Part shown: positions 1,716 to 63,694 of the stretch, piece by piece | How the letters are laid out: each line of letters opens with the position of its first letter | Position numbering within the stretch: position 1 is the first letter of the stretch | IMG/VR virus record: IMGVR_UViG_2974499353_000001 | Coordinates: 40,721 to 104,720 of that record | Reading direction: 5' to 3' (one strand) | From: a virus | Lineage: Duplodnaviria; Heunggongvirae; Uroviricota; Caudoviricetes; Ackermannviridae | DNA length: 64,000 bases | The notes under the pieces: generated by a model | Databases searched by the model: none | What the model was told of the DNA's origin: nothing | The model's input: only the letters and a program-made list of their open reading frames with translations | Translations under genes and position numbers: made by a program

Positions 1716-1724
1716 GTTACAACC

Positions 1725-1967
1725 TTAAATGAGTTTTTTAGATTTCAATTCACCCTTCAACAACCGAGCATCAGAACATTCAGCTGTTAGCCTTGACAGA
1801 AGAGGAGGCGTGATCAATTTTTTGACCTTTGCTTCTTCGATGTCATACTCTTCACAAACACTGGCCATCGTTTCAAGGATTGATTCCTTGCGTTGGCTTG
1901 CTCTCATCAACACCAATTCGGAAAAAGAATCTGGTGTGAGCACTTGTGCTATTTGTTGATCAGACAT
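1725..1967 (-). CDS. Hypothetical protein (about 80 aa). Start moved to the internal ATG (MSDQQ), which has SD AAGGGG.
   Basis: ORF track plus a Shine-Dalgarno sequence 9 nt upstream of the internal ATG. No motif. Confidence 0.4.
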   Translation of the reverse strand: MSDQQIAQVLTPDSFSELVLMRASQRKESILETMASVCEEYDIEEAKVKKLITPPLLSRLTAECSDARLLKGELKSKKLI

Positions 1968-2205
1968 CGATTGTATTCCCCTTCCCTGATTGCTTCTTAA
2001 TATGACGCAAAACGTCTTTGAAGCCATCAGGCGCGGACTGAGGACCACGAACACCAGATACGATCTTTGGTGCTCCGATAATCATTTTTATTTCGCCGCC
2101 ACATTCAGAACATGGCTCTAATTCAGGCGTGTGACGTTCAGCACAAGATTTTCGAGCACTAAACGAATTTCCACAACCTGTACAGGCATAATCATAAAAC
2201 GGCAT
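1960..2205 (-). CDS. FmdB-family zinc-ribbon protein (about 81 aa)
   Basis: N-terminal MPFYDYACTGCG followed by a downstream CSECGG. This is the typical FmdB CxxC...CxxC ribbon. GGAGG SD 7 nt upstream. Confidence 0.5.
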   Translation of the reverse strand: MPFYDYACTGCGNSFSARKSCAERHTPELEPCSECGGEIKMIIGAPKIVSGVRGPQSAPDGFKDVLRHIKKQSGKGNTIDV

Positions 2206-2488
2206 GAATCGCCTCCAATACGTGTCGTAGAAATATAATAACTGCTCCCACCAGCGTAGAAAACAGGACAATCCTGCTTGCTTTATCACGCAGCAAAACA
2301 TATTCGGCCAACATATCAGATTGATTTGCAGCTCTTACATTGACGTCACTATGTGGTGAAACCGCATAGAAAGATACCATGGCACTTAATGAATGAAGGA
2401 ATGTCAAGAATCCCTTAATCCAAACAAACGCCGTCATCAACAGCAAGGCGAAAAGCAGTATATCTGCCAGCAGCCAGTAGTTAATCAT
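2192..2488 (-). CDS. Small membrane protein (98 aa, 2 to 3 predicted transmembrane helices)
   Basis: Hydrophobic stretches LLADILLFALLLMTAFVWI and IVLFSTLVGAVIIFL. Confidence 0.45.
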   Translation of the reverse strand: MINYWLLADILLFALLLMTAFVWIKGFLTFLHSLSAMVSFYAVSPHSDVNVRAANQSDMLAEYVLLRDKASRIVLFSTLVGAVIIFLRHVLEAIHAVL

Positions 2489-3092
2489 TTCTTACACCTC
2501 TATTGAAATCAGGATAATTTTCTATGAAGTAAGGACCAGAAACCATATTTGCAAACGAATCCACGAGGTCATCGATTGGCTTTGGATCCTTCACATCCAA
2601 CATGTCCATTATACCGCGCATCTTAACGTTGAACAGCTTCTCAAAGTGATCTATCATGACCAATTTGTCGGCATTTCCTTTACCACAAAAATGTTTCTTA
2701 ACAAAAGACGGGGTAACAATCTGAAATTCCATATTGTTACGGCGCATCGCTTGTTTCAATAGAGATGTGTTCTCGGCGGTTTGGCATATGTTGTTGGAGT
2801 TTTTTGAATTCCCCATAGCATAGCCTTCTAGGGTGATGAAATCCGGCTTCTCTGTAAGAAGTACGGCTTCAGCCCATTTGGAAATGTTATAAAACCGTTC
2901 TTCGGGGGATTCATATTTGGGTTGACGTAAAATAAGAATATTGTGTCGCACTTGACGACAGTGCTTCTCAACGGTATGATGTGCATAGAAATGAAGATGA
3001 TCAAAATCCAGAGGATCTTTGTCGTCCCAGAAGCACATGGCTGGACAGCCGTAAGAATAGTCGATTCCGCAAAATTTCATAAAAATACCCAT
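2481..3092 (-). CDS. Putative RNase-H-fold nuclease, possibly a RuvC-like resolvase
   Basis: N-terminal motif FCGIDYSYGCPA resembles the RuvC/YqgF GID catalytic start. Later acidic residues (ITLEGY, MIDHFE). Weak assignment. Confidence 0.35.
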   Translation of the reverse strand: MGIFMKFCGIDYSYGCPAMCFWDDKDPLDFDHLHFYAHHTVEKHCRQVRHNILILRQPKYESPEERFYNISKWAEAVLLTEKPDFITLEGYAMGNSKNSNNICQTAENTSLLKQAMRRNNMEFQIVTPSFVKKHFCGKGNADKLVMIDHFEKLFNVKMRGIMDMLDVKDPKPIDDLVDSFANMVSGPYFIENYPDFNRGVRND

Positions 3093-3129
3093 AACGAAGT
3101 TTCATTGTGTTATGGGTATTTAGACCGGA

Positions 3130-3615
3130 TTATCTGGTGACGATTTTGCTTTCCGGTAAAATCAGGCGAGGTTTGGAGTCCATTTCTTCTTGCATCTGAC
3201 GTATCTGTTGCAGTAATGCAGAAGTGTCCACATGACGTTTGATCCCCCGCGCTTCATCACCATATGACACATGGCCGTTGGCGTCCACATAATGCGCGGT
3301 GCAAACCATCAAAACATAACCCAACTCACCAACGGCAACCGTTAAATCAACCACTTCGGAAGCCAAAGATTCTCCGTCAACACTGAGATTGGGTGAATAA
3401 TGGATTTTACCATCAGCCATAAATTCGCTATTCAGCATAATCATGCCAGCGATCGTTTGTACAACGGGGTTCCCCTGATCATCAGCAACGAAACCGTCGA
3501 ATGCGCCTTCAAACCCTGGCGCAATTTCTCCCTTTTCATTTGTGATCACAGCGCGAAGGCGTTGAAGGATGACGTCTTGTACCTGCTGAATATCAGCGCG
3601 TTCTACGTTTGGCAT
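3130..3615 (-). CDS. Hypothetical protein (about 162 aa). Start moved to the ATG that has SD GGAGAA.
   Basis: ORF track plus SD. No motif recognised. Confidence 0.45.
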   Translation of the reverse strand: MPNVERADIQQVQDVILQRLRAVITNEKGEIAPGFEGAFDGFVADDQGNPVVQTIAGMIMLNSEFMADGKIHYSPNLSVDGESLASEVVDLTVAVGELGYVLMVCTAHYVDANGHVSYGDEARGIKRHVDTSALLQQIRQMQEEMDSKPRLILPESKIVTR

Positions 3616-4117
3616 TATTGTTCTCCAGTTCATAATCCCGTTCTTTAACATATTCATAAAGACGAGAAGTAATTCGGTCGGCATTGCCTGTGGTATTCTT
3701 CACAACCCAACCGCTCGTAAGGACATCCATTTTATATCCACAATCATTATCTTGAAAATAACTTTTAATTGATTCAAGCCGACGACGTTTATGAAAATAT
3801 GGTATTAATTCGCCAATGATGACACAATCGGGATAATGCTTATCCAGAGTGTTTATGTCTCGTTGCACCCAAACCGGAATAACATCATCATCTTCAATTG
3901 GGCTGTACGTTGGATCAACGATAATCACATTGAATCCATAATTCAATAAATCTTTAACTCCCAGCCACCCGAATTTCATATCGGACACGGTCATGGCGAC
4001 ATTCTTTATCCCCAATTTATTTGCAAAATCTGTGAGTAATACAAAAAAGTCCGTGTTTGCATCCGGATAATTAATTGCGAGTTGCTCCCCCACTTTACTG
4101 AAACAGAACGCGTGCAT
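3593..4117 (-). CDS. Hypothetical protein (174 aa)
   Basis: Clean ORF. No motif recognised. Confidence 0.5.
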   Translation of the reverse strand: MHAFCFSKVGEQLAINYPDANTDFFVLLTDFANKLGIKNVAMTVSDMKFGWLGVKDLLNYGFNVIIVDPTYSPIEDDDVIPVWVQRDINTLDKHYPDCVIIGELIPYFHKRRRLESIKSYFQDNDCGYKMDVLTSGWVVKNTTGNADRITSRLYEYVKERDYELENNNAKRRTR

Positions 4118-4166
4118 TTTCAGTCCTCGTTATAAATACAATTACAATATACCGTGGAGATACATT

Positions 4167-4973
4167 ATGAATTTACCATCATTGCCCAAAACTGAGAGAA
4201 CACATAAAAGTGATTTCTGGCCGACTGTGATCAAATACCGCGCCTTTACAGCAGGGCAACAGACCATGTTACTTCAGGTTGCTGATCCGAACACTCCTAT
4301 GAGTGAGCGCGTGGCAACATTGGAGCAACTATTTGACAGTTGTGTTGATGCTGGCGTTCCCTTTAGTAAACTGCCAATCGGTGTTACTGAAGAAGTATTT
4401 TTAAAGATGCGCTGTATATCTATCGGCGAGGTCATGAAGATACGTTACAAATGTAATAACAAAGTTCAAGCCGAAACCAATGAAGGTGGTGAAGAACCAG
4501 TTTCTGGCCTTAAAGATTGTGGTCAAGAGCTTGTGTTACCGATCCCGCTCAATCAGGTAAAATGCGTGTCCCCAGAAGGCTTCAGGGAGACGTTTGATCT
4601 ACCAGGTGGTTATCATATAAAGATGCGCCAGCCGTCCTTCTCGGATGCCTCAGTGCTTAATGAAGCATCCTCTGTTGAACAAATGATTGCCACCTTTATC
4701 GATTGTCTGTATGACGACGATGGTCAGGTTTGGAAGGTGGAAAATCCGGCTGAACCTGGTATCGATCCAGAAGTTGCTAAAGAACGCCAACGCATTAAGG
4801 ATGAATTTGTCAAATGGGTCGGGGACAATATTGAATCTGAGATTGTTCAGGACATTTCGAATGATTTCTTTAAAAAGATTCCGCGTATTCGTTACGCGAC
4901 AAAAATTAAATGCCCTTCGTGTGGGAAAGAACACGAAGTCAAATTTAACAGTGTCACCGAGATTTTCATTTAA
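4167..4973 (+). CDS. Hypothetical Cys-rich protein with a C-terminal zinc ribbon (CPSCGKEH)
   Basis: One of the few plus-strand genes. Several Cys pairs. Followed by a 500-bp noncoding region and then gp5. A baseplate-associated role is inferred from position only. Confidence 0.55.
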   Translation: MNLPSLPKTERTHKSDFWPTVIKYRAFTAGQQTMLLQVADPNTPMSERVATLEQLFDSCVDAGVPFSKLPIGVTEEVFLKMRCISIGEVMKIRYKCNNKVQAETNEGGEEPVSGLKDCGQELVLPIPLNQVKCVSPEGFRETFDLPGGYHIKMRQPSFSDASVLNEASSVEQMIATFIDCLYDDDGQVWKVENPAEPGIDPEVAKERQRIKDEFVKWVGDNIESEIVQDISNDFFKKIPRIRYATKIKCPSCGKEHEVKFNSVTEIFI

Positions 4974-5122
4974 TTTTTGAAATTGATTTACTCTCCTATT
5001 TTGTGATGTGTGACGAATTAAAGGCACACGGCTATAGCATATTTGAAATCAGTGAATCGATGCCGTGGCATCTTGATTTGCTTACCGAGACACTGAAAAT
5101 TAGATTGTCTAAGAAATCTTCC

Positions 5123-5150
5123 AACCCCACGTAATGTGGGGTTTTCTTTG
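5123..5150 (+). terminator. Rho-independent terminator (AACCCCACGTAATGTGGGGTT followed by a T run)
   Basis: GC-rich perfect hairpin followed by TTTCTTTG. Confidence 0.7.
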
Positions 5151-5394
5151 CTTACCTGTTTTATAGGTTAAGACAGGAACGTTTAACCTTAAATTGCTAT
5201 AACACCGTTGTTGCTGAAGTAAGTGTTGTGTAATTGGGGTTTGAATTTGTTTTGAAGCAAAAATAATCCTTTTCTACGCATGTTCTGAGGTGTACAGTAT
5301 TTTCCTCGCCTTTATGCCTCCATGGCATTGGAATGGGACTGCCTGTCAAGGCGGTGTTACGAGCTTCAGCGAGTAGGAACGAAAAGAATAAAGG

Positions 5395-5421
5395 TTGAAC
5401 GGAAGCAGAGCTTCCTATAAT
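5395..5421 (+). promoter_or_regulatory. Sigma70-like promoter upstream of gene 5 (TTGAAC, about 15-nt spacer, TATAAT)
   Basis: Hexamers read directly. The spacer is short, so confidence is moderate. Confidence 0.4.
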
Positions 5422-5450
5422 ATATTATTCGACAGATTTCAAATCCCCGC

Positions 5451-5458
5451 CATAAATA
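5451..5458 (+). promoter_or_regulatory. T4-type late promoter-like box CATAAATA, about 22 nt upstream of the gp5 ATG
   Basis: Near match to the T4 late consensus TATAAATA at the expected distance. Confidence 0.45.
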
Positions 5459-5479
5459 TCACATGATTCTAATTGACTA

Positions 5480-7105
5480 ATGGGTTTCAATATGTTAGAC
5501 AACTTGCGTTGGTTTTACGGGCGCGTTGAAGACGTGAATGATCCCGATCAAAACGGGCGCGTCGCAGTACGCATCTATGGGGTACACACGGAGGATACCA
5601 CTCTTCTGCCTACCGAATTATTGCCTTGGGGTAAAATGCTTATGCCAGCATCTAACGCCTCCTCGGCAGGTTTAGGCTGGTCTCCGACGGGTATCACTGT
5701 CGGCTCTGACGTTATGGGGTTTGCTTTGGATGAAGCATATCAGAACATCCGTATTGCATGGGTATGGCCAGCAGCAACACCAACAGATGGGTCAGATACA
5801 AACCCATTGGCGCTGGGTCAGGTCGTTCAATCTATAGAAAGACAGAAGTATAATGCCGTCGAGAATGTTCCTGTTAAGATTGAGGATGAACCACAACCGG
5901 ATCCACAACCACCAGTAGACGGATATGATCCTGAGAAGTGGATGACCGTGGCTCGTGGGGAATTGGGCGTCAAAGAATATTCTGGTAAGTTCAATAACAA
6001 CCCAAGGATATTGGAATATCATAAGACAACTTCCCTGGGGGCGTCAGAAGATGAAGTTAGTTGGTGTGCGTCGTTCGTTGGGTGGGTCCTGATACAGGCC
6101 GGATATACATCAACACGTTCTGCTTTGGCTCGTTCATATCTACAATGGGGGTCTCCTCTGTCAGAACCACGTTACGGCGCTGTTGTAGTGTTCCGGCGCG
6201 GGAACAACCCGACATTCGGTCACGTTGCATTCGTTCAGAAATTTGACGCCAACTACGTTTGGTGTATCGGGGGAAACCAATCCGATTCTGTGAAGGTGAG
6301 CCGTTTTAGCCGCTCATCCGTGTTGGGTTATCGTTGGCCAGGTCCAGCAACTACAGCTTCAGCAGCTCCGGCACAACAAAACGGTAAATGGTCTGAACCT
6401 ATTCCAGATCGTACCCCGAAAGTCCAAGAAACACCGCCTCCTTCTGGTCGTGTTCAGGATATTGACAACACAGGAGAGGTATCGGTTCCTTCGGCTGGAG
6501 GGTCTCGTTATCCATACAACAATGTTATGGCTTCTCGAGCTGGGCATATTATGGAGGTCGATGACACTCCAGGCGGGGAACGTTTGCATTGGATGCACTC
6601 TTCTGGGTCTTACAAGCAAATGCTTCCTGACGGTGATGTTGTTAATAAATCAGTCAAAGATCATTATGACCTGACGATGTTCGACAAACGTTATTATGTG
6701 GGGGGTGATCATAACCTGACAATTGGTGGGACTGAAGTACAGCGCAAGAAAGGAGAAGTTTACCACTTACACTCTTCTAACTATTCCAATGTGGTCGCTG
6801 GAACAGCGTTGATGAAATTTTCCCAATTGGCTGAGATACAGGCACAGAACGTGTTGCGTCTCATCTGTGAAATGTTGGAAGTTTCCAATACTTTGAAAGT
6901 GCCTAAAATACTGGCTAGTGAAATAGTTTGTGATAAGTTGTCGGTGGCGCAGACTATTGAAGGCAACATCAAATATGCTGAAGGCGCTGGCCGCGCCGCC
7001 TCACGTGCGGGGGCAACTCCTGTAACAACTACAGGCCCAGGTCCAATTGATATAAAACCGGAGTTAGAGGATAACGGCGGCAATTTTGGTGGTAAAGGCG
7101 CATGA
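5480..7105 (+). CDS. 5: Baseplate central hub/spike protein gp5 homolog. Carries a CHAP peptidoglycan-hydrolase domain in place of the T4 lysozyme domain.
   Basis: N-terminal OB domain similar to T4 gp5 (NLRWFYGRVEDVNDPDQNGRVAVRIYGVHTED versus T4 NLNWFVGVVEDVMDPSLIGRVRVRVHGLHSPD). The middle region has CHAP motifs SWCASFVGW (catalytic Cys) and GHVAFV (catalytic His). The C-terminus is helical rather than a long beta-helix. Confidence 0.85.
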   Translation: MGFNMLDNLRWFYGRVEDVNDPDQNGRVAVRIYGVHTEDTTLLPTELLPWGKMLMPASNASSAGLGWSPTGITVGSDVMGFALDEAYQNIRIAWVWPAATPTDGSDTNPLALGQVVQSIERQKYNAVENVPVKIEDEPQPDPQPPVDGYDPEKWMTVARGELGVKEYSGKFNNNPRILEYHKTTSLGASEDEVSWCASFVGWVLIQAGYTSTRSALARSYLQWGSPLSEPRYGAVVVFRRGNNPTFGHVAFVQKFDANYVWCIGGNQSDSVKVSRFSRSSVLGYRWPGPATTASAAPAQQNGKWSEPIPDRTPKVQETPPPSGRVQDIDNTGEVSVPSAGGSRYPYNNVMASRAGHIMEVDDTPGGERLHWMHSSGSYKQMLPDGDVVNKSVKDHYDLTMFDKRYYVGGDHNLTIGGTEVQRKKGEVYHLHSSNYSNVVAGTALMKFSQLAEIQAQNVLRLICEMLEVSNTLKVPKILASEIVCDKLSVAQTIEGNIKYAEGAGRAASRAGATPVTTTGPGPIDIKPELEDNGGNFGGKGA

Positions 7106-7116
7106 TTACACTGGTG

Positions 7117-7135
7117 AGGGCAGATAATGCCCTCT
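7117..7135 (+). terminator. Stem-loop (GAGGGCAGATAATGCCCTC) after the gp5 stop. Possible attenuator or processing site; no T run follows.
   Basis: Perfect 7-bp stem. Confidence 0.35.
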
Positions 7136-7166
7136 CGTGCTGGAGAGGCAATATCCAAAGGGGTTT

Positions 7167-7550
7167 AACATGAAAGAGTACAAGGACATTGACCTGAAGT
7201 TTGGCATGCATCCGGTCACCAAAGATGTCACTAAGAAAACAGGCATTTATGCTGTACTACAATCTGTGCGTAATATAGTGATGGCGACGGTAGGTGATTG
7301 GCCGACGTATCCGAGTATTGGGGCGGGGTTGTATACCATGCTGGGAGAAAATACAAATCCCACGATACAGGTCGACGTGAAGAACAAAGTTGAAGATGCC
7401 ATTGCTCTTTTTGAGCCAAGAGCTGAATTGCAATCTGTTGATGTATCATTGTCGGACGATTATCATTCTCTGGGCGTAACCATCACGTTCTATGTGGTCA
7501 ACAACCCAGAGCCGATAACAGACACCATATGGTTGAAACGGACAAATTGA
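7167..7550 (+). CDS. 25: Baseplate wedge protein gp25 (GPW/gp25 family)
   Basis: Pattern similar to T4 gp25 (QSVRNIVMATVGDWPTYPSIGAGL, and the C-terminal LGVTITFYVVNNPEPI versus T4 LIVEIRFSVIDNPDDI). SD AAAGGGG upstream of the internal ATG at 7167. Confidence 0.75.
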   Translation, partial: NMKEYKDIDLKFGMHPVTKDVTKKTGIYAVLQSVRNIVMATVGDWPTYPSIGAGLYTMLGENTNPTIQVDVKNKVEDAIALFEPRAELQSVDVSLSDDYHSLGVTITFYVVNNPEPITDTIWLKRTN

Positions 7551-14101: not shown

Positions 14102-14896
14102 TTAGCAGAAACTCTTGTATGCTGCCGCCAGTTTGGTGTCATACTGGTTCTTGGCGTATGCTGGACCATTGTACCGACGAGCAAACTCGGCCCAATTCTT
14201 GTTCTTCAGGGCTTTCCACATATTGGCATCAGCCTTGATGAACTTGACAAATGCCAGAAGGTGGGCGCGTTCACCAGTCAGGAAATCAGTGAACATCTCT
14301 TTGGCATTTGAATAGCCACAGATTTGGCAGTTGAACCCCATGATCTGGAATAGGCCGTAGGAAGCACTCTCGTAAGCGCAGTCCTCGTCAAGGGCGATTG
14401 CACCCTGAAGGCGTTCCAACTCCGCGTCTCCGCCGATATACCCGCCAGAATTGGGGTTAACCAATGTTGGGTAGAGTTGGTACAGAGCATTGGCTCTTGC
14501 TTGCCCGAATTTGGCCGTCACCTTTTTGTACATGATGTGGCGCTCAAACAGAGTTTTGATCTTGCCAGTTTTGGTAAAACCCGTGCCACGGGATTCTACC
14601 TGATTCACCGCTTTCATACTGGCCAGCTCAACACCAAGTTCACGTGCTGCGTCAACCAAGTCCGCTTCGGTCAGATGTTCCTGGTGAGCGTCTCCAGCGT
14701 TGCGGATAGCATAGAAGGTCTTTGGCCCAGCAATACCATCAATAACCAATCCAGCACCTGCCTGAACGGATTTGACGGCATTCTCTGTTGCCTTACCAAA
14801 TATGCCATCGGCTGTAAGAGAGAAACCGATTTTGTTGAGGCTTTGTTGAAGTGCTTTGACTTCAGAACCTCGGTTGCCAAGTTTTAGAATGGCCAT
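14102..14896 (-). CDS. Endolysin with an N-terminal peptidoglycan-binding domain and a C-terminal N-acetylmuramidase (DUF3380-type) domain
   Basis: PG_binding_1-like repeat (GSEVKALQQSLNKIGF...DGIFGKATENAV) and the muramidase signature SYGLFQIMGFN. Start moved to the ATG (MAILKLG), which has a GGAGGT SD. Confidence 0.75.
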   Translation of the reverse strand: MAILKLGNRGSEVKALQQSLNKIGFSLTADGIFGKATENAVKSVQAGAGLVIDGIAGPKTFYAIRNAGDAHQEHLTEADLVDAARELGVELASMKAVNQVESRGTGFTKTGKIKTLFERHIMYKKVTAKFGQARANALYQLYPTLVNPNSGGYIGGDAELERLQGAIALDEDCAYESASYGLFQIMGFNCQICGYSNAKEMFTDFLTGERAHLLAFVKFIKADANMWKALKNKNWAEFARRYNGPAYAKNQYDTKLAAAYKSFC

Positions 14897-31160: not shown

Positions 31161-31187
31161 AAAAGCCGAGGCATTAACCTCGGCTTT
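31161..31187 (-). terminator. Terminator AAAAGCCGAGGCATTAACCTCGGCTTT after the HU gene
   Basis: Hairpin plus T run on the minus strand. Confidence 0.65.
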
Positions 31188-31597: not shown

Positions 31598-32392
31598 TTA
31601 TTTGCCGACGTTCAGCATTTTACCTGAGCCGGATCCGTCAACGATCAGAGTACATTTTCCACTGTTGGCGCATGATTGTAATACCATGTTATATTCATGT
31701 TGAAGATATTCAGGCGTCAGCGAAGTGGTCAGTTTCTGGTTCGCTTGGGCTTCTTGCTCGCGAATTTCAACGTTCTTTCTTGCCGTATCCAATCGTTTGT
31801 CCGCCATAACATTATCACGGATAGACTGCTCAATAGAAGGATCCGTCAGCGCCTTTTTGACCAACACGCGTGTGATTGTGAACATGCCAGGCGCAGCAGT
31901 CTCTAATTGTTGCTGAGTGCGGTCTTTAATCATCTTCTCTAATTCAGCACGTTGGGTGTGGATTGTCATAGAATCAAGAGAAGAAACGGCGTCCATCGAA
32001 GAAGATGCTGCAGCAGTTTTAACTAGATTGAAACCCACCGCTATCGTGCCATCATCGAGTTCAGCGCTCTGGCCAGCAAATTTGGTATGGAACCACGGAA
32101 CCTTTGCGACATTGGGTGTGTAATAAACATCCACATCCAAGTCTTCCAGAGTCAGGTTGTCTTTGGCCTTTGGCGTCATTTTAGTCAGACTCACAACGGC
32201 TTCTTTGGTCGTGTAAACATCCACGCTTGAAACAAAGCTGGTGTAGATCCCCGCTGTTACAGGGTTCATGTCTACTTCACCCCATTGGGTGCGAACGCCG
32301 ACATTACCTTCATCGATAACGCCACCACAACCAGAAAGTAGACTTGCAGCCAGAACCATAATTGCACCGAACACCAATTTCTTGAACATCAA
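31598..32392 (-). CDS. SPFH/band-7 domain lipoprotein
   Basis: Lipoprotein signal MMFKKLVFGAIMVLAASLLSGC. SPFH-like IDEGNVGVRTQWGEV core plus a C-terminal coiled coil. Confidence 0.6.
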   Translation of the reverse strand: MMFKKLVFGAIMVLAASLLSGCGGVIDEGNVGVRTQWGEVDMNPVTAGIYTSFVSSVDVYTTKEAVVSLTKMTPKAKDNLTLEDLDVDVYYTPNVAKVPWFHTKFAGQSAELDDGTIAVGFNLVKTAAASSSMDAVSSLDSMTIHTQRAELEKMIKDRTQQQLETAAPGMFTITRVLVKKALTDPSIEQSIRDNVMADKRLDTARKNVEIREQEAQANQKLTTSLTPEYLQHEYNMVLQSCANSGKCTLIVDGSGSGKMLNVGK

Positions 32393-32598
32393 TGTACCCC
32401 TTCAAAAATATAGATATATGCACCCAATGTGAGTGCGGTTATTGTAACCGAAGAAATCAGCAGCAGGAAAGTTACCCTCACCCGTTTGCGCCAACGTTTA
32501 CTTCGGTAGATTTTAGTCTCTTTCATGTATTTGAAAAAGAAAAATAAAATGAATGTTGAAATTACGAATATGAACAGGTAACGAATTAATCCGATCAT
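32389..32598 (-). CDS. Small two-helix membrane protein (69 aa), translationally coupled at both ends
   Basis: Hydrophobic helices IRYLFIFVISTFILFFFF and VTFLLLISSVTITALTLGAYIYIF. ATGA-type overlaps with both neighbours. Confidence 0.5.
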   Translation of the reverse strand: MIGLIRYLFIFVISTFILFFFFKYMKETKIYRSKRWRKRVRVTFLLLISSVTITALTLGAYIYIFEGVH

Positions 32599-32912
32599 TT
32601 TACACCTGCGTTTTCCACAATCGCTTGATAAATGTGACGTTCAATAGTTCCATCACAAAAACCTGGCCGAAATAAACCAGCTATCGCATCCAAACACTTC
32701 TGAGTCGGTTGAACCGGAATCATAATGTGTTCTTTGTCTTCGACAGGTGTGGGTAAACAAATAACCTGACCAACCGTGATATGGCCTGGGTTTTGGATAT
32801 TGTTGAATCTGGCTAATTTGATATACTGTTGGGCATCACCATATAATTTTAGAGCGATGCTGGACAGAGTATCCCCAGGCTTTACAATATATTTTGAAAT
32901 CATATTTCCCAC
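32595..32912 (-). CDS. LysM-domain protein (105 aa)
   Basis: LysM motif YIVKPGDTLSSIALKLYGDAQQYIKLARFNNI...GQVICLP. Confidence 0.65.
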   Translation of the reverse strand: MGNMISKYIVKPGDTLSSIALKLYGDAQQYIKLARFNNIQNPGHITVGQVICLPTPVEDKEHIMIPVQPTQKCLDAIAGLFRPGFCDGTIERHIYQAIVENAGVK

Positions 32913-33220
32913 CCTGTACTGCGCAGATGCTCGAAATAATCGTTGAGTTCGTCAACATCTTCCATATCAACCCAACGATCATCCAGACCCATATCATTAA
33001 GATCATCATCGGTCAGATCATGTTGATAAATCTGAATGCCCGAAGCATTGCAATAATCCGGCTTGATATTGTTGTTGAACTGGAACAAATCATAATCACC
33101 CAGAGCATTCTTCAGGCGCTGCGCTTCTTCAAATGTTGGAACCTCAACATGAAAGGCGATCCCAGGAACCTGGGGAATATGCCAAACGCGAAATTTAAGT
33201 TCAAACGGTTTATTCGACAT
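32900..33220 (-). CDS. Hypothetical highly acidic protein (106 aa)
   Basis: Asp/Glu-rich C-terminal half (DLTDDDLNDMGLDDRWVDMEDVDELNDY). Confidence 0.45.
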   Translation of the reverse strand: MSNKPFELKFRVWHIPQVPGIAFHVEVPTFEEAQRLKNALGDYDLFQFNNNIKPDYCNASGIQIYQHDLTDDDLNDMGLDDRWVDMEDVDELNDYFEHLRSTGWEI

Positions 33221-33536
33221 GGGGTTCTCCCTGAGCCAGTATGGTTTTCATCTGTTCACGCGTGATAATTGTTTCAACAAGATTCTCATCGATCATCATT
33301 TCGTTTAACAGTTCACAACCCAGCACGTGTGGTCGCGCCATATACGGCATGGCGTTGAGTTTTTCTTCTATGTCAAGAACGCGCTTGACAGTCAGACCCA
33401 TAGAAGAAAAGGGAACAGGATAAAAGAATGAAATAATCTGGTTATCCATCCCGTTTGAAAATCTCACTAATAATACATCACACCATACGCCGGACATATC
33501 ACACCTCCACTGAGTGGGATTTAAGTAGTTCATCAA
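33210..33536 (-). CDS. Hypothetical protein (108 aa or shorter)
   Basis: ORF track. The start is uncertain because the ORF overlaps the upstream gene. Confidence 0.4.
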   Translation of the reverse strand: MMNYLNPTQWRCDMSGVWCDVLLVRFSNGMDNQIISFFYPVPFSSMGLTVKRVLDIEEKLNAMPYMARPHVLGCELLNEMMIDENLVETIITREQMKTILAQGEPHVE

Positions 33537-34189: not shown

Positions 34190-34215
34190 AAAGGCGGTTT
34201 AATAATAACCGCCCT
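34190..34215 (-). terminator. Terminator AAAGGCGGTTTAATAATAACCGCCCT
   Basis: Hairpin plus T run after the 34228 gene. Confidence 0.55.
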
Positions 34216-35084: not shown

Positions 35085-35405
35085 TTATCTTTGATTTCCA
35101 ACGAAATTAGTCGCTATTTCCCGACACATAGTCAGATCTTTGATCGTCTGTTTGCTATTATCGGCAGCGGACTCTATCATTGGCAAATCTAAAGCATTCT
35201 CTATTTGATCCACGCTGTAGAGATCAAGGCGTTTCAACTCACCTTCATAATCTGATAAAAGGATGGATGTATCTTTATCATCAGGGTGAAATTGTTGATA
35301 AGTAGACAACCAGGCCGCACATATATTCAATTTGCTGGCCGGAGTTGCCATAACTTGGAATGATGCTAACATAGAAAAGAATAACAAGAATATTATGTTT
35401 CTCAT
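35085..35405 (-). CDS. Small secreted protein (106 aa, signal peptide, 2 Cys)
   Basis: Signal peptide MRNIIFLLFFSMLASFQVMA/T. Confidence 0.5.
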   Translation of the reverse strand: MRNIIFLLFFSMLASFQVMATPASKLNICAAWLSTYQQFHPDDKDTSILLSDYEGELKRLDLYSVDQIENALDLPMIESAADNSKQTIKDLTMCREIATNFVGNQR

Positions 35406-57699: not shown

Positions 57700-58347
57700 C
57701 TACATGAAATCTTTTACCCATTCAGAGTCTTCCATAGGAACCCAATTTTCGTATTTGAACATTTTGTACATGTTATAGAATACTCGAATATTATTCCCGT
57801 CGTTCATACGGTTACAAAATCGTTCATGCCCCCAACCTTCATTCTTCCATAATTGATAGAATTGGTCAGCCATAGCCCAAACGTGTTGTAATGGTTTGGC
57901 TCTAGGTCGATTCCATATCCTCACGCTTGCTTGATATTTGATCTGGGCTTGCCGTGATGTTTCCGAAAATCCAATTGGTTTGTTCTTTCCTCTTGTTACG
58001 TTAGACAAATGCGCCTTTGCTTCTTCACTGAGTGGCCCAGTCCTTCCAAAATAAACGAGGGAACCATCTTTCTTAACATGGAAACGATTTAAACAAAGAG
58101 GATTGGTGTGAACGGATTCGATCAATTGCGCTTCAACTTGGAGGGCTTCCTCTCCATCCTGACATAGCATTATTACTTCATGGGTGAAGTAATCTGGCCC
58201 ATGTTGTGATATAAGGGATTGGACGACTTTCGAGGACGTGAAATATTTTACCCAAAGTTCTTTGGGGTGACAGTTCTTTGCGTGACGGCATCCATAATAG
58301 ATGTGCCCATCTTTTGATTCTATTTTGTAAACGTATGGTTGGTTCAT
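57700..58347 (-). CDS. GIY-YIG homing endonuclease (Seg-like) downstream of gene 23
   Basis: GIY-YIG core YVYKIESKDGHIYYGCR. The C-terminal module WAMADQFYQLWK...MYKMFKYENWVPMEDSEWVKDF is homologous to the HNH enzyme C-terminus. Confidence 0.8.
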   Translation of the reverse strand: MNQPYVYKIESKDGHIYYGCRHAKNCHPKELWVKYFTSSKVVQSLISQHGPDYFTHEVIMLCQDGEEALQVEAQLIESVHTNPLCLNRFHVKKDGSLVYFGRTGPLSEEAKAHLSNVTRGKNKPIGFSETSRQAQIKYQASVRIWNRPRAKPLQHVWAMADQFYQLWKNEGWGHERFCNRMNDGNNIRVFYNMYKMFKYENWVPMEDSEWVKDFM

Positions 58348-58390
58348 AATTCCCCCTTTCAGGACATTATAACCCCATACTTCTGAAATA

Positions 58391-58413
58391 AAAACCCCGC
58401 CGAAGCGGGGTTT
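58391..58413 (-). terminator. Strong terminator AAACCCCGCCGAAGCGGGGTTT after gene 23
   Basis: Perfect hairpin plus T run. T4 likewise has a strong terminator after gene 23. Confidence 0.7.
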
Positions 58414-58430
58414 GTAAGTCGTTGTTTCTA

Positions 58431-59753
58431 TTAGAACAGCGACTTTATCAACCCTTTACGGAAGTAAACGTTGCTATCCTGAGCAATACCGTCAGCAGTC
58501 ACGTAAACCTGCGGGTCTTGGTTAGCCGGAATCTGTACGAACGGGTTAGCACAGATGCCGTAACGGGTTTTGAACGCCATACGCGGAGCGAAGGTGGTTT
58601 CACCCTGGGTGCGGTACATTTCCAGCGGCACATACGGCGCGAAGAAGATACCGGCATCCAGCGCAGTTGCGCCTTTGTATGCCAGAGTGATATATTCTGC
58701 TACAGCATACGGGTCAACATAGACGCGCATACCGTTGGACAGAACACCAGCGAAGGTCTGGCCAGTCGGGTCAACAGCCAGTTTAGTGTTTTCCTGCAGA
58801 ACCGGAGCATAGTCCAGCATGCCAGACATCGCCAGAGCGGATGCCACGTTCGGAGAACACAGAACACGGTTGCCTTTACCACGACGGGTGTCAACACCGA
58901 TACCGTTCGCTTCGACTTCCAGCATGAAAGTCAGGAACTTCCATTTTTCCAGCGCCCAACGACCAGAGATGTCCTGCGCGATATCAACAACACCGTTGGT
59001 GCCGAATTTTTTGAAGCGAACAGCACTGAAGTTCATGGTACGGATGAATTCACGGTTCATTTCCGCCTGAATTTCAGTTACCATCACGTCAGACAGGATA
59101 TTGTCCACGTCTTCGCCGTGAATTGCCATCATGTCCTGACGCAGTTCATGGCTGTAATCAGCGTACAGGCCGCGAGACTTGGCAGTAACGGTCGCTTTCT
59201 GAACAGTGATACCAACACGCGCCCAAGGGTTGGTGGTAGTACCCAGCAGTTCAGCGTCACTTGACGGCATACCTTTACCGATAGTGGTCACGCCAGAGCC
59301 GGAACCTTCGATCTCAGCCTGACTAAAGCCAGACGGGTCGCCAGCCTGTACAGTACCATCACCGGAATAGCCGGAATCGGCTTCCTGCATGAACAGTTCT
59401 TTACGAGACTGTGCGGTGTTGGAACTGTCACCAACGCCCTGGCGAGCGCGCAGTGCAAAGATCTGACCGTCAGGACCAGACAGCGGCTGAACACCGAAGA
59501 AGTCCATCGCGATGTTGATCGGCGCCAGACGTTTTGCCATGTCGATCAGAACTGGCTGCCATTTACCGACAGTGCTGTTCACAGAACCAGGTGCGTCAGA
59601 TTCGCCCAGGTTTTTTGCGTTCCATTCAGCCTGGTTCTGCATCAGACGGATGGTTACGTTTTCGGCAGACAGAGGTTGAATAGCTTCAGATTCTTTTTGG
59701 AGAACTGGCAGCCACTGTTTGCGCATTTCTTCGGTTACAAGTTTCTTAGTCAT
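58431..59753 (-). CDS. 23: Major capsid protein gp23
   Basis: APINIAMDFFGVQPLSGPDGQIFALRAR versus T4 IPNLIAFDICGVQPMNSPTGQVFALRA. Also C-terminal similarity (MRVYVDPYA, FKTRYGI). Confidence 0.9.
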   Translation of the reverse strand: MTKKLVTEEMRKQWLPVLQKESEAIQPLSAENVTIRLMQNQAEWNAKNLGESDAPGSVNSTVGKWQPVLIDMAKRLAPINIAMDFFGVQPLSGPDGQIFALRARQGVGDSSNTAQSRKELFMQEADSGYSGDGTVQAGDPSGFSQAEIEGSGSGVTTIGKGMPSSDAELLGTTTNPWARVGITVQKATVTAKSRGLYADYSHELRQDMMAIHGEDVDNILSDVMVTEIQAEMNREFIRTMNFSAVRFKKFGTNGVVDIAQDISGRWALEKWKFLTFMLEVEANGIGVDTRRGKGNRVLCSPNVASALAMSGMLDYAPVLQENTKLAVDPTGQTFAGVLSNGMRVYVDPYAVAEYITLAYKGATALDAGIFFAPYVPLEMYRTQGETTFAPRMAFKTRYGICANPFVQIPANQDPQVYVTADGIAQDSNVYFRKGLIKSLF

Positions 59754-59813
59754 GATGCTCGTTCCTTACATTGATATTCAGTTAAGTTGAAATTACTTAG
59801 TAGTTCAAAATCA

Positions 59814-59831
59814 AGCCCCCTTTCGAGGGCT
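59814..59831 (-). terminator. Hairpin AGCCCCCTTTCGAGGGCT between genes 22 and 23
   Basis: Partial terminator or attenuator. It would allow a separate, stronger gene 23 transcript. Confidence 0.45.
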
Positions 59832-59844
59832 GCGGCTGCTAAAA

Positions 59845-60684
59845 TTAGCCGTTCAGCAAAGCACTGATCTGGCGACGGACGGCTTCGTTGACTTCTTTGC
59901 CAACTTCGTCTTTGTCATCATCGTCATCGTCATCATCGTCGGCTTCACCTTCTTTCTTCGGTTTTTTACCTTCTTTGATGTCTTTTTCAGACTTGTCGCC
60001 ATCCGGCTTGCCTTTTTCATTGTCTTTGCCGACTTTATCAGAGAAGTCATCTTTGCCTTCTACCAGGTTACGGAAGGTGCGCACACGGGATTCAAATTCA
60101 GACTCGGTCTGGAATTCAATACCTTCCAGCAGGTTGACAACAGTGTCTTTCTTGGTGTCAACCATGCCTTCACAAATGCGATCAATTACGTCGGTGCGCT
60201 GGCGTTTAGTCTCGCTTTCTTTGAGCTGAGCCAACTCTGTATTAGCCATATTGGCGCGTTGTTCTGCTTCAGCAAGGCGACTGGTGAGGGCGGCAATCTG
60301 ACCGTCTGGGTCAGTAGCGAAACTCACACCTGCTTCTTTCAGCACGTTGGAGAAACCAGTGAGGAAGCGTTCAGCAGCTTCGGTTTTGATCTGAGCGTCA
60401 ATAGCCGGAGCATTTTTGTTAGCCCATTCTTCAACAACCGCGTTGAGGAACGAATCAACTTTTTCCGCCAACTGAAGAGTGAAATTTTCTTTAAGGTCTG
60501 CGACTTCTTTCTGGTGGGCTTCTACCAGAGTCAGGCGCTCAACGTTACCAGCCGCTTCAGTTTCTTGAATAGCTTGCAGACGGGCGGCTTCAACTTTAGA
60601 TTCCAGCAGACCAGATACTTTGTCCAAGAAATCGGTGCTGAGGCCATTAACGCCTTCAAACAGTTTTTGCAATTCAGGTTTCAT
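59845..60684 (-). CDS. 22: Prohead core scaffold protein gp22
   Basis: Coiled-coil protein with a poly-Asp C-terminus (ADDDDDDDDDKDE). Position between 21 and 23. Confidence 0.75.
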   Translation of the reverse strand: MKPELQKLFEGVNGLSTDFLDKVSGLLESKVEAARLQAIQETEAAGNVERLTLVEAHQKEVADLKENFTLQLAEKVDSFLNAVVEEWANKNAPAIDAQIKTEAAERFLTGFSNVLKEAGVSFATDPDGQIAALTSRLAEAEQRANMANTELAQLKESETKRQRTDVIDRICEGMVDTKKDTVVNLLEGIEFQTESEFESRVRTFRNLVEGKDDFSDKVGKDNEKGKPDGDKSEKDIKEGKKPKKEGEADDDDDDDDDKDEVGKEVNEAVRRQISALLNG

Positions 60685-60730
60685 GATAGTTTCCTTCTGA
60701 ACGATTTTTCAGTATTTAGTGAGCTGAATT

Positions 60731-61399
60731 TCAGCCCAGATGATTCAATGCTGCATCAAGGCGGCGCAGGAAGTCGTCTTCTACTTGAATATTGGCTTTC
60801 ACCAACTGATCAACAACGTTTCCTTTAACATCCCGAGGCATCCAAATACCCGAAGCCTCATCAAGCTGCCATTCAACAGATTCACTCACAGCCTTAACAT
60901 AACAAACTTGTCCAGAAGGACGGTCGACTGCATCAACAGCGGTGAGCATAAAGCCAGGCTGAACGTCATCATAACCGTTTACTGACTTGGTCTCACCCAG
61001 GCCACGTGTAGACACGGCCAGATTGAAGTCTGCTTCGGCCAATGCACGTATGATTTGGCCTTTTGGTGTATTTAAAATTCGCGCCCGACCGATGGCATTG
61101 GTGCCTTCCCAGCGAAGGGATTCGGTTTTGAGCGCTGCTTCCACCAGATTAGGGAAAGGATAGTCAGGATGTGTGACTTCACCGATTGCGCGACGATCTT
61201 GGATATACTCTTTGTCATATGCTTCGACAGCAGGGATACCCACTTTCTGTAGATCATAGTTACGCCCGTTCCGGTTTACTTGGTTACACATCACAAACGG
61301 ACCTTCGATGAACATGGCCTTCCCACCAGTTGAGGTCGTATCCTCACCGATTTGAAGATCCTTCCCTATCGCTGTGATCTCACGCAACAGTTTCATCAT
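60731..61399 (-). CDS. 21: Prohead protease gp21
   Basis: IGEVTHPDYPFPNLVEAA, GRARILNTPKGQII, AVSTRGLG are similar to T4 gp21. Confidence 0.85.
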   Translation of the reverse strand: MMKLLREITAIGKDLQIGEDTTSTGGKAMFIEGPFVMCNQVNRNGRNYDLQKVGIPAVEAYDKEYIQDRRAIGEVTHPDYPFPNLVEAALKTESLRWEGTNAIGRARILNTPKGQIIRALAEADFNLAVSTRGLGETKSVNGYDDVQPGFMLTAVDAVDRPSGQVCYVKAVSESVEWQLDEASGIWMPRDVKGNVVDQLVKANIQVEDDFLRRLDAALNHLG

Positions 61400-61406
61400 A
61401 AACTCC

Positions 61407-61724
61407 TTACTTGTTCTTACTCAGTCCCATCATTTTGCGGAACTTCATAGCCTTTTTCTTACGACGCTCGATTTTTCGTTGGTAGCCCATACCCATACGC
61501 TTTTTGGAGCGAAGAGCTTTTCGGTTGCCGATTTTGCGCACACGACGTTCGCTGGCATCCATGACTTCACAACGTGAACCGTCAGCCGATAATTTGAACC
61601 CAGGGGCACATTTCAGGCGGCGGCGGCGTTTACCACGAGCGTTCACTTTATCGATGACTCGCTGCTCGTCCATACGAGAGGCCAGGAAATCAGCGAACGT
61701 GGCGATCTCTGTGATTTCCATCAT
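61407..61724 (-). CDS. 68: Prohead core protein (gp68-like), highly basic
   Basis: Position between a gp67-like ORF and gene 21. Lys/Arg-rich. Confidence 0.45.
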   Translation of the reverse strand: MMEITEIATFADFLASRMDEQRVIDKVNARGKRRRRLKCAPGFKLSADGSRCEVMDASERRVRKIGNRKALRSKKRMGMGYQRKIERRKKKAMKFRKMMGLSKNK

Positions 61725-61732
61725 GCATCTCC

Positions 61733-61903
61733 TTACTGGCCGTTGTTGTTTGAATTCATATCAGCTGCGATAGAATCCAGAACATATGCTGTGCCTTGGT
61801 TTAATAGTTCTTGACTACGTGCATCAAGTTCCATGTTGCATTCTGCAACAGCAGTTTCAGTGTCACCGTCAATTACTGCACGAACGATATCAATTGCGCT
61901 CAT
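61733..61903 (-). CDS. 67: Small acidic prohead core protein (gp67-like), 56 aa, not in the ORF track
   Basis: Derived by hand: SD GGAGAT, then ATG...TAA. Translates as MSAIDIVRAVIDGDTETAVAECNMELDARSQELLNQGTAYVLDSIAADMNSNNNGQ. Position between 20 and 68, as in T4. Confidence 0.4.
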   Translation of the reverse strand: MSAIDIVRAVIDGDTETAVAECNMELDARSQELLNQGTAYVLDSIAADMNSNNNGQ

Positions 61904-61944
61904 GATTTTGATCTCCGAATTAATTTTCTATATTTAGTTGAACT

Positions 61945-63627
61945 TTAAATACTATCGTCTGTTGAACCGGAGAATGGGATAGTCTCAGGTTTAAACTTCA
62001 ACGGACTAACATCTGAACCGCTATAATTGCCAGTTTCATCCGCCTGAACCTTCGGATAGAGATCTTTCTTCTTCTCTTCTGCAATCTTGGCCTGTTGTTC
62101 TTTAACTTCTTCATCTGACATACGGAGAACATTTCTCATAACGTAATCAATGGAGAATATAGAACCGACAAAAGGCTCAACAGTGTTCAATGAAGCCAGA
62201 CGATCATTCAAGATAGCGTTTTCTTGTTGTTCACGAATGTAACTATCTGATGTGAATTCAAACTTTATAAACGGTTTGATCTTCTCATTCCAATCCTTTT
62301 CATCCGTTACGCCTTTCAAAATTAATTGACGACGTAAAAACTCCATAAAGAAATGGGAGTAACGGCGACGCAACCCAGCACAGAACTTGCTGAAACGCAG
62401 CTCTTCCTGTGTAATCTCCGCAAGGTTAGAACCCCCAATGTTAATAGATCCTTCCTCTTGGAGGCGGCTCTTAGGGATCATTAGAGCATCATAGAGTTTT
62501 TCACGGAAATAGTTCACGTGATCCATTTCGCCCAATTGATTCCCACCACCAACAGTCGCGATCTCTGTAGCATTCTGACCTTCGCGGCGCGGCAACCAAT
62601 AATCTTCTGCAATACCCATAAGATGGGCGTTGCCTGTGATTTTACCAGTGGTGCGGTCATATGCGTTGCGGTTTTTGAATTTGCCCATCATCATGGTCAT
62701 GTATTCTTCGGCAGATTTCTTACCGAGAGTACCGACGTCAAGATAGAATGCGCGTTTCTCAGGGGCGCGAGTGATGGCATAAATTACAGTCGCATCTTCA
62801 GTCGTAACCAGGTTGTTCAACGGACGGATAGCAGGATTTAAAAGGCCTGGGACAATACCATTGGCCAATGGCTCTTCACCACTATCGATGTAAACAATGC
62901 TTTCGTCATCGAATACGAGTTCTTGCTGTGAAGGCTGGAAGTTCTGGGAAGTACCAGATTGGCCAGTGAATTGGTTCCGATTATAATTCGGGTTGTAATA
63001 GTATTTCAGCGTTACAGATTCGATCGCTTCTATACCACCTTCACGCATTGCCTTTTCAACGATGTACACAGGACGAATACAACGAGAATCCAGCATGACC
63101 AATTTCTTGATCCCGCCTTTTTTATTCGTGGGATCAACGATGACATGATATGCTTGTCGACCGTCAACATACCATTTCCGGATCTTCTGATATGCTGTAT
63201 TGTCAAAGTCCATCAAGTGCATAACTTCTTTGAAGCATTCGGTGATAGATTCTTTAACAGTATCAGATATCCCTTCAACTTTGTCAAGGTTTACTGTCAC
63301 TGGAGTTTCATCTTCCTCACAGGTGACAACATCATTGACAATAATGTCCACAGCTTTGCGAATTTCAGGCTGTTGAGCCATGGACTGATATTCTTCCACA
63401 ACTGTTTTAACGCTGAGAAGTTCACTCTCAACGCCAACATAGTTGTAGGTGTTTGCACCGCCCTGAAGGATTATAGAACCGTCTTGAGCGTCGTCCAGAG
63501 CAACAACTGTCGCTTTGGTTAGCAACCGTTCATCTTGTTTTTGGGCTAACTTATCGGTGTCGACTTTAGCGTTCACCAAACCGCCGCCGCCAAACAAACC
63601 GAAGAACCCTCTGCCGTATCCAGCCAT
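61945..63627 (-). CDS. 20: Portal vertex protein gp20
   Basis: RKWYVDGRQAYHVIVDP, ITRAPEKRAFYLDVG, EDYWLPRREGQNATE are similar to T4 gp20. Confidence 0.9.
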   Translation of the reverse strand: MAGYGRGFFGLFGGGGLVNAKVDTDKLAQKQDERLLTKATVVALDDAQDGSIILQGGANTYNYVGVESELLSVKTVVEEYQSMAQQPEIRKAVDIIVNDVVTCEEDETPVTVNLDKVEGISDTVKESITECFKEVMHLMDFDNTAYQKIRKWYVDGRQAYHVIVDPTNKKGGIKKLVMLDSRCIRPVYIVEKAMREGGIEAIESVTLKYYYNPNYNRNQFTGQSGTSQNFQPSQQELVFDDESIVYIDSGEEPLANGIVPGLLNPAIRPLNNLVTTEDATVIYAITRAPEKRAFYLDVGTLGKKSAEEYMTMMMGKFKNRNAYDRTTGKITGNAHLMGIAEDYWLPRREGQNATEIATVGGGNQLGEMDHVNYFREKLYDALMIPKSRLQEEGSINIGGSNLAEITQEELRFSKFCAGLRRRYSHFFMEFLRRQLILKGVTDEKDWNEKIKPFIKFEFTSDSYIREQQENAILNDRLASLNTVEPFVGSIFSIDYVMRNVLRMSDEEVKEQQAKIAEEKKKDLYPKVQADETGNYSGSDVSPLKFKPETIPFSGSTDDSI

Positions 63628-63662
63628 GATCTAAGTCCTCAACATTTTCTTGTAATTAGTGA

Positions 63663-63681: not shown

Positions 63682-63694
63682 AGCACCGAGGACA

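Follow-up and report, generated by a model that had tools for sequence, protein, structure and literature searches.

A hairpin membrane protein with two predicted helices and a lipoprotein of the SPFH (Band 7) superfamily, encoded by adjacent genes of a Kuttervirus phage, are proposed here to form a conserved two-gene cassette, with related forms in Ackermannviridae, Straboviridae and Schitoviridae. The main new result is a correlation across loci: the lipobox of the SPFH protein is accompanied by a hairpin partner and, where there is no lipobox, there is no partner. This correlation suggests that the hairpin supplies, in place of a transmembrane (TM) anchor, the integral-membrane element missing from the lipidated protein. 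The DNA under study, referred to below as the window, is a stretch of 64,000 nucleotides (IMG/VR virus record IMGVR_UViG_2974499353_000001, positions 40,721 to 104,720) that matches Salmonella phage S118 (NC_049437.1; genus Kuttervirus, family Ackermannviridae) at 100% identity, with window position 31000 corresponding to record position 71720; all coordinates are those of the window unless a phage or locus is named. Two genes are central. The SPFH lipoprotein gene (31598..32389, minus strand; orf102 of S118, homologue of CBA120 orf126) codes for 263 amino acids from its ATG and was assigned by PF01145, phrog_200, a structural model and Foldseek. The hairpin gene (32389..32598, minus strand; S118 orf103, CBA120 orf127A) codes for 69 amino acids and was assigned by phrog_11680, its hydrophobic segments and a family alignment (A2).

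Homologues of the SPFH lipoprotein were gathered from protein databases, IMG/VR contigs and GTDB genomes, which provided a phage-type set of 18 non-redundant loci (35-54% identity, all with a lipobox) and a bacterial set of 64 loci (33-44% identity). A small open reading frame (ORF) with two TM helices (55-72 amino acids) ends less than 320 nucleotides upstream of the SPFH gene in 17 of the 18 phage-type loci but in only 1 of the 64 bacterial ones, the background density of such frames being about 0.02-0.05 per 320 nucleotides. In most phage-type loci, the gap between the hairpin and SPFH genes is -4 to +28 nucleotides. The small proteins have little sequence in common; what they share is their length, a basic residue close to the N-terminus, a loop rich in basic residues and the motif [LF]-[ED]-x-x at the C-terminus (A2). 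In Erwinia phage phiEa2809 (54% identity), the hairpin-SPFH pair moves as a unit; it lies in a different place relative to the GP17-like gene discussed below, and the surrounding gene order also differs. The bacterial relatives are chromosomal and come from Steroidobacteraceae, Rhodocyclaceae, Zoogloea and others. The lipobox pattern occurs in only 2 of these 64 relatives, where the matches look spurious, and the N-termini inspected are hydrophobic, TM-like anchors. No conserved neighbour that hints at function was found in the 64 bacterial loci. As a separate observation, an ORF of ∼1250 amino acids lies directly upstream of the lipobox-less SPFH gene in 6 of the 64 (L077, L081, L083, L085 and two others; locus positions ∼100-3900); all six are gammaproteobacterial metagenome-assembled genomes, including several Steroidobacteraceae, and the L077 representative of this ORF matches TamB (Pfam E=3e-56).

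The hairpin is missing where a phage SPFH version lacks the lipobox, as in contig L031 and in ORF098c of Aeromonas phage 44RR. Acinetobacter phages contain a second SPFH clade, ∼24% identical. Two of them, AbTZA1 (Straboviridae) and XC38 (Schitoviridae), have a lipobox-bearing SPFH gene with a small multi-TM ORF directly upstream of it, while in the unclassified Acinetobacter phages Ab15/Herod a two-TM ORF is located two genes downstream of the SPFH gene. The Acinetobacter partner (AbTZA1, L102 1208-1480; XC38, L103 1248-1511) has 87-90 amino acids and a basic C-terminal tail, from which it follows that its topology probably differs from that of the S118 hairpin. On the other side of the SPFH gene, a small type-IV-pilin-like gene (Pfam N_methyl, E ∼1e-8 to 1e-9) is directly downstream in two viral contigs (L022 4857-5090; L030 4797-4937) and in phage 44RR (L104 9998-10216); in 44RR it is followed by a further lipoprotein gene, ORF096c, with an LSGC lipobox, and a recurrent island of envelope proteins is possible.

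The orf102 product matches the Band_7/SPFH hidden Markov model (HMM) PF01145 over profile positions 2-176 of 176 (E=3.2e-13, 50.6 bits for a cutoff of 23.6) and phrog_200, annotated 'lipoprotein' (E=1e-58). Residues 1-21 (MFKKLVFGAIMVLAASLLSG followed by C; 32327..32389, minus strand) have the sequence features of a signal peptide with lipobox: a K3K4 n-region and a hydrophobic core (MFKK-LVFGAIMVLAASL-LSGC) precede L18-S19-G20-C21, in agreement with the pattern [LVI][ASTVI][GAS]C used as the lipobox test. By these signals, the protein is predicted to be exported, and lipid-anchored instead of TM-anchored. Its AlphaFold2 model, computed with 31 homologues (predicted local distance difference test score 85.9), consists of the signal helix, an SPFH alpha/beta domain (residues 22-182), two helices (184-223 and 226-242) and a short C-terminal strand. 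The first SPFH beta-strand (E22-25 in the model) begins one residue past Cys21, so that a tether is absent. The two helices (31664..31840, minus strand), delimited by DSSP on the model, align with CC1 and CC2, the coiled-coil wall and cap helices of cage-forming SPFH protomers; some homologues carry an 11-residue insertion in this region (alignment A1). Ahead of the C-terminal strand lies a Cys240-x5-Cys246 pair (31652..31672, minus strand), placed by residue positions and alignment A1, which is present in nearly all aligned lipobox-bearing homologues and absent from relatives without a lipobox (A1). This pair is likely to form a periplasmic disulfide.

Whole-chain Foldseek comparison of the model with the PDB returned prohibitin (8rrh, 1.7e-13), erlin (9vvj), HflK/C (9cz2, 7vhq and 7wi3), stomatin (9z7u) and QmcA (8z5g), with a probability of 1.00 and with 12-18% identity to the orf102 product. 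A profile search of PDB sequences with the SPFH family alignment found nothing at E<=0.01; the protein is therefore a divergent SPFH member, tied to the solved cages only by fold comparison. As modelled, it holds every element of a cage-forming SPFH protomer (SPFH1/2, CC1, CC2 and C-terminal strand) and most resembles prohibitin, erlin and HflK/C. Its HMM match and predicted architecture together assign it to the SPFH / Band 7 superfamily. NCBIfam gave no meaningful match for either the two-TM or the SPFH protein, and a PADLOC-DB scan of four proteins gave no match at E<=0.1 for any of them.

The orf103 product matches phrog_11680 (E=2.8e-46) and consists of two hydrophobic helices around a loop with ten K/R residues (KYMKETKIYRSKRWRKRVRV). 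Basic loops of membrane proteins stay on the cytoplasmic side (the positive-inside rule), and by this rule the loop would be cytoplasmic and both very short ends periplasmic. Several identities were considered for this protein and rejected. It is not an NfeD protein, as no NfeD HMM match was found at E<=1 and the two TM helices and basic loop take up the 69 amino acids, which leaves no space for an OB-fold. It is not a holin either: its C-terminus is only FEGVH, the endolysin gene is 17 kb away and no holin family match was found in Pfam or PHROGs. Nor is the pair of the Rz/Rz1 spanin type, in which an inner-membrane protein with a single TM helix at its N-terminus and a coiled coil in the periplasm is combined with a small, proline-rich outer-membrane lipoprotein; the architectures are reversed here, where no periplasmic domain is present in the membrane protein and the role of lipoprotein falls to an SPFH protein of 263 residues. 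No Pfam Imm match was found at E<=1. The original prediction for this locus, made from the nucleotide sequence without database searches, had described a protein with two TM helices and an SPFH lipoprotein with a coiled coil, likened to bacterial stomatin/NfeD-type scaffolds. The two hydrophobic segments agree with it, as do the lipobox, the full-length SPFH architecture of the model and the PF01145 match, which lies above threshold; the search it had proposed for an SPFH domain was thus positive. Its NfeD-type likeness is contradicted by the absence of an HMM match and of room for the OB-fold.

The same prediction had joined to these two genes a third one, coding for a LysM protein, in a single envelope module. 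The LysM gene (S118 orf104; 32595..32903, minus strand; 102 amino acids from ATG, as in RefSeq) lies directly upstream of the hairpin gene, and its product matches LysM PF01476 well above threshold (E=1.1e-11, 44.9 bits for a cutoff of 20.9), as the prediction had anticipated; the match covers residues 8-54 of the scanned GTG-started ORF of 105 amino acids, i.e. 5-51 of the 102-residue product. The RefSeq name 'endolysin' was rejected, since only the LysM domain was detected in these 102 amino acids, with no catalytic domain. The protein sequence has no signal peptide and no hydrophobic N-terminus. Without an export signal it cannot reach peptidoglycan by the Sec route, and its envelope location, unlike its domain, is therefore doubtful.

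Distribution separates this gene from the other two. Close copies found by tblastn in phage records number ∼170 for the SPFH gene, 157 for the hairpin gene and ∼50 for the LysM gene, the last being missing from about two-thirds of the Kuttervirus records that have the SPFH gene. In Se-J, Se-B, 'barely' and others, the LysM gene is absent and a GP17-like gene abuts the hairpin gene directly. Alignment of S118 with Se-J shows the LysM gene as an exact single-gene indel of 309 bp, bounded by a 5-bp ATGAT repeat that is made by two start/stop overlaps; in the Se-J locus (L100 1445-1560), the GP17-like gene is joined straight to the hairpin start. Conversely, Klebsiella Taipeivirus phages have a LysM gene (50-59% identical) that overlaps a GP17-like gene, but neither hairpin nor SPFH gene, and phiEa2809 has the hairpin-SPFH pair but no LysM gene. 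Outside Kuttervirus, no LysM gene was detected by phmmer beside the SPFH gene at any locus. The indel and the distributions in Taipeivirus and phiEa2809 indicate that the LysM gene and the hairpin-SPFH pair assort independently. The LysM gene is a neighbouring cassette with a separate history, outside the hairpin-SPFH unit, and the three-gene grouping does not stand. As an aside, overlapping ATGA junctions may serve as recombination 'joints' for gene-sized cassettes.

Directly upstream of the LysM gene are the GP17-like gene (32900..33220, minus strand; Pfam PF17420, P22 GP17-like, E=6.3e-52), annotated 'superinfection exclusion', and a DUF7425 gene (33210-33497, minus strand). In Taipeivirus the link between the GP17-like gene and LysM is kept, and the sequence data suggest that GP17-LysM may be the real pairing of the LysM gene.

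The gene overlaps, on which the three-gene grouping had leaned, are of a general kind. The three ORFs exist and are encoded by the phage, as predicted; all are on the minus strand, and the LysM/hairpin junction is a true ATGA overlap (32595-32598). The hairpin/SPFH junction, also said to be of the ATGA type, is instead a 1-nucleotide TGATG overlap (32389), with TTGA only if a TTG start is used; in the ORF list, the SPFH ORF extends to a TTG at 32392 and the LysM ORF to a GTG at 32912. The chain of overlaps continues upstream, by ATGA between the GP17-like gene and the LysM start and by 11 nucleotides between orf106 and the GP17-like gene. In the inspected annotated parts of the S118 genome, ∼34 of ∼126 same-strand junctions (∼27%) overlap. 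Overlap is the normal packing style of this genome and no marker of a module, and hence provides no evidence for a functional link between the LysM, hairpin and SPFH genes.

The cassette lies in a tightly packed minus-strand block running from orf107 to orf102, beyond which come genes for an HU-like protein and a helicase, and the wider S118 region contains gp46/47, gp55, RNase H and clamp-loader genes. In other phage contigs, conserved neighbours of the cassette are genes for an RNase T-type exonuclease, RtcB, RNA ligase and a metallophosphoesterase. The real endolysin gene (phiKZ gp144-like) is orf81 (window 14102-14896), 17 kb from the cassette, and no lysis gene was found beside the cassette in the other phages examined. 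The distance of the endolysin and the replication, recombination and RNA-repair neighbours argue against a role in lysis. In the vicinity, orf109 (35085-35405, minus strand), a 'Rz-like spanin' in RefSeq, codes for 106 amino acids with a cleavable-looking signal peptide and is conserved in phiEa2809; it has no lipobox, TM anchor or Pfam match, and its annotation as a spanin seems unfounded.

The window shows no enrichment of the T4 late-promoter consensus TATAAATA, with 2 occurrences for 1.97 expected. A CTAAATA-like motif that structural genes share in their upstream regions is likewise not significantly enriched (9 for 6.5) and is absent from the cassette block, which is weak evidence. As neither late motif is enriched, promoters do not settle timing. 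A CACTAAATAC-like motif found ∼25-35 nucleotides before the starts of several structural genes and of the endolysin gene (window ∼58000-64000 and 4000-7200) is a candidate late promoter that differs from the T4 TATAAATA. Two strong terminator-like hairpins were also noted: one at 34191-34215, between orf108 and orf107, heads the cassette block, and a palindromic one at 31162-31187, between the HU-like and helicase genes, would be usable on either strand. No Kuttervirus transcriptome was found in the literature; in the virion proteome of Kuttervirus Sajous1, the SPFH protein is represented by only 3 spectra (PMC10892097). Taken together, the neighbours, the absent late motif and the 3 virion spectra favour expression in the early or middle phase and speak against a function in lysis or in the virion structure. 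By its position, the cassette is probably expressed early or in the middle of infection, before the late genes, and a lysis function is unlikely.

The explanation that best covers these data, with an about even chance of being right as a whole, is that of a two-gene cassette of accessory role, in which a periplasm-facing SPFH scaffold would sit on the inner membrane together with its hairpin partner. Hairpin and lipoprotein would be translated together from the tightly packed block; as this block lies among replication and recombination genes, the pair would probably be made before the late genes. The lipoprotein would then remain at the inner membrane, on its periplasmic side, and oligomerize into a dome like that of HflK/C or prohibitin. 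The hairpin, as integral-membrane partner, might replace the missing N-terminal TM anchor, nucleate the dome, or be a client enclosed inside the cage. The cassette could thereby condition or guard a patch of the host inner membrane during infection, either by excluding superinfecting phage DNA or by keeping the membrane intact. Klebsiella Taipeivirus phages lack the cassette despite shared flanking genes, which makes it dispensable at the family level and fits a function in competition or host range.

Several points weigh against this explanation. A 2026 paper states that the reason for an SPFH lipoprotein in a phage genome 'remains unclear' (PMC13239085). The partners of the Kuttervirus and Acinetobacter clades differ in length and probable topology and have no detectable sequence similarity; the pairing could represent two analogous solutions instead of one family. 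In a mirror-tree comparison of hairpin and SPFH divergence, the Mantel Pearson r was 0.45, a value reached in 0 of 5000 permutations, with a Spearman coefficient of ∼0, and the sequence signal of co-evolution is weak. The scan for sigma-70 promoters and terminators gave results only marginally above shuffles, which makes the operon limits uncertain, and the timing of expression comes from position alone. Finally, the residue after the lipidated Cys points to the other membrane. In enterobacteria, Asp at position +2 directs retention in the inner membrane (the +2 rule). S118 has Gly at +2; in relatives G or Y predominates, F, M and T also occur, and D is found once (P0028). By this rule, CGGV predicts sorting to the outer membrane, and the near absence of Asp favours it.

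The rival explanation built on this signal, which is unlikely, places the SPFH lipoprotein at the outer membrane, either as a dome beneath it or as a monomer, which could for example mask a receptor or channel there on the pattern of exclusion lipoproteins such as T5 Llp or those of the Cor type; the hairpin would act transiently in biogenesis, or independently. Such a function would have precedents, as phage exclusion lipoproteins at the outer membrane are well known (T5 Llp-FhuA). However, no member has a tether: in all phage-type members, 1-3 residues separate the lipidated Cys from the I[DE]xGNVGV strand, and with a Cys this close to the SPFH strand, the domain must lie right against whichever membrane the lipid is inserted in. 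Outer-membrane lipoproteins of E. coli go to the inner membrane instead once their disordered N-terminal linker is deleted (El Rayes et al., bioRxiv 10.1101/2021.01.05.425367). Placement at the outer membrane also leaves unexplained the strict genomic coupling to a hairpin that is alpha-helical and hence an inner-membrane protein, and homologue P0028, with its Asp at +2, speaks against it. The restriction of the Cys240-x5-Cys246 pair to the lipobox clade fits an oxidizing periplasm. On balance, the inner membrane is somewhat favoured for the SPFH lipoprotein.

Alternatively, the pair might act as a phage mimic or modulator of host HflK/C-FtsH, or of another membrane protease, and so alter the turnover of membrane proteins. 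HflK/C chains in FtsH complexes are indeed among the top structural matches (9cz2, 7wi3 and 7vhq), HflK/C likewise faces the periplasm (PMC2636767) and some records are named 'regulator of protease activity HflC'. That name comes from a generic COG label, however, and no protease gene is linked to the cassette; with identity to HflK/C of only 15-18%, equally good matches to prohibitin, erlin and stomatin, an empty PDB sequence-profile search at E<=0.01 and no NCBIfam HflK or HflC match, this possibility is quite improbable. The lysis timer, in which a holin- or antiholin-like hairpin would be corralled by the SPFH cage until lysis, draws on the capacity of SPFH cages to sequester membrane proteins and on the hairpin being small, with two TM helices, in the size range of class II holins. 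It is nevertheless very improbable in view of the distant endolysin, the nucleic-acid enzymes encoded next to the cassette elsewhere, the position of the block among replication genes with no late-type motif and the lack, in the hairpin, of the charged C-terminal tail typical of holins. As for the single envelope machine of the original prediction, in which LysM protein, hairpin and SPFH lipoprotein would tie peptidoglycan to a membrane scaffold, the three genes are adjacent with start/stop overlaps in S118, Vi01 and ∼50 other records. This idea now has hardly any likelihood left, being largely refuted by distribution: LysM is a clean one-gene indel, with ∼50 records for ∼157-170 with the two-TM and SPFH genes, it accompanies the GP17-like gene without them in Taipeivirus and was not detected by phmmer at other phage loci, its product has no signal peptide, and overlaps are generic in the genome.

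The proposed scaffold of hairpin and SPFH lipoprotein resembles known systems in part. With prohibitin PHB1/2 and HflK/HflC, the phage protein shares the SPFH domain, a long CC1, CC2 and the C-terminal strand (Foldseek E 1e-13 to 1e-9 over 230-290 columns), the location of the domain on the non-cytoplasmic side, which is predicted here, and a size of 263 amino acids close to that of prohibitin. It differs from them in its low identity (12-18%, with no PDB profile match), in having an N-terminal lipid anchor, no TM helix, no tether and a C-terminal Cys pair, and in being encoded by one gene in virulent phages instead of a K/C or PHB1/2 pair; it is known here from a monomer model. The SPFH-NfeD operons (E. 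coli QmcA-YbbJ, Pyrococcus PH1511-PH1510) also couple an SPFH gene to a gene for a small membrane protein, and QmcA (8z5g) is a structural match. However, the phage partner has 55-72 amino acids and only two TM helices, with no NfeD HMM match and no room for an OB-fold, and QmcA faces the cytoplasm whereas the phage SPFH protein is predicted to be exported. Hinderhofer et al. (PMC2636767) saw no NfeD partner in the SPFH3/4 groups, which face the periplasm. The SPFH fold is also present in other viral genomes, namely those of T4-like phages (44RR, Aeh1 and RB43), Vibrio, Rhizobium and Streptomyces phages and giant viruses; many of these proteins are TM-anchored without a hairpin, e.g. 44RR ORF098c, and the lipobox-plus-hairpin cassette is a distinct subset. 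The exclusion proteins T4 Imm and Sp and T5 Llp offer an analogy only, as the cassette has no sequence or fold relationship to them. Imm is an inner-membrane protein with two TM helices, Sp is periplasmic and Llp is a lipoprotein; all are small envelope proteins made early, and they shield a cell already infected against additional phage.

By the BFVD matches, proteins with the SPFH fold are frequent among phages and giant viruses. SPFH genes in phages 44RR, Aeh1 and RB43 have been noted since 2006 (PMC1524935), and a Vi01-like SPFH copy was tabulated in 2011 (PMC3220722). Public records annotate the SPFH gene as 'lipoprotein' or 'SPFH domain band 7 family protein', the hairpin gene as 'hypothetical protein' and the LysM gene as 'endolysin' or 'LysM domain-containing protein'. 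In the literature searched, no functional study of any phage SPFH lipoprotein was found, and neither the hairpin partner nor its association with the lipobox was described. The SPFH domain annotation is thus already public, while the hairpin pairing appears undescribed. A methodological lesson is that, in phage genomes of such dense packing, start/stop overlaps do not by themselves indicate a functional module.

SPFH proteins (prohibitin, stomatin, flotillin and HflK/C) form membrane cages, and the contents of most are unclear. A bold extension of the two-gene scaffold, distinctly unlikely at present, is that, in several families, virulent phages equip the inner membrane of the host with a periplasmic SPFH cage of their own, a lipid-anchored, prohibitin-like dome nucleated or held by a dedicated mini-hairpin, to wall off or armour a membrane patch. 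If true, the cage would block genome entry of rival phages or neutralize membrane-targeting abortive-infection effectors, and would represent a previously unrecognized class of phage envelope-takeover device, with the hairpin as an SPFH partner of a new kind, other than NfeD, in the place of a TM anchor. Phages of the genus Kuttervirus serve in the control of Salmonella and E. coli O157, and a function in exclusion or anti-defence, if true, would have a bearing on the design of phage-therapy cocktails. More generally, the minimal phage SPFH system, with one lipidated protomer and a partner of 55-70 amino acids, non-essential and present in several families, would be a tractable model for cage anchoring and function, and would give a role to a widespread accessory cassette now labelled 'lipoprotein' beside 'hypothetical protein'.

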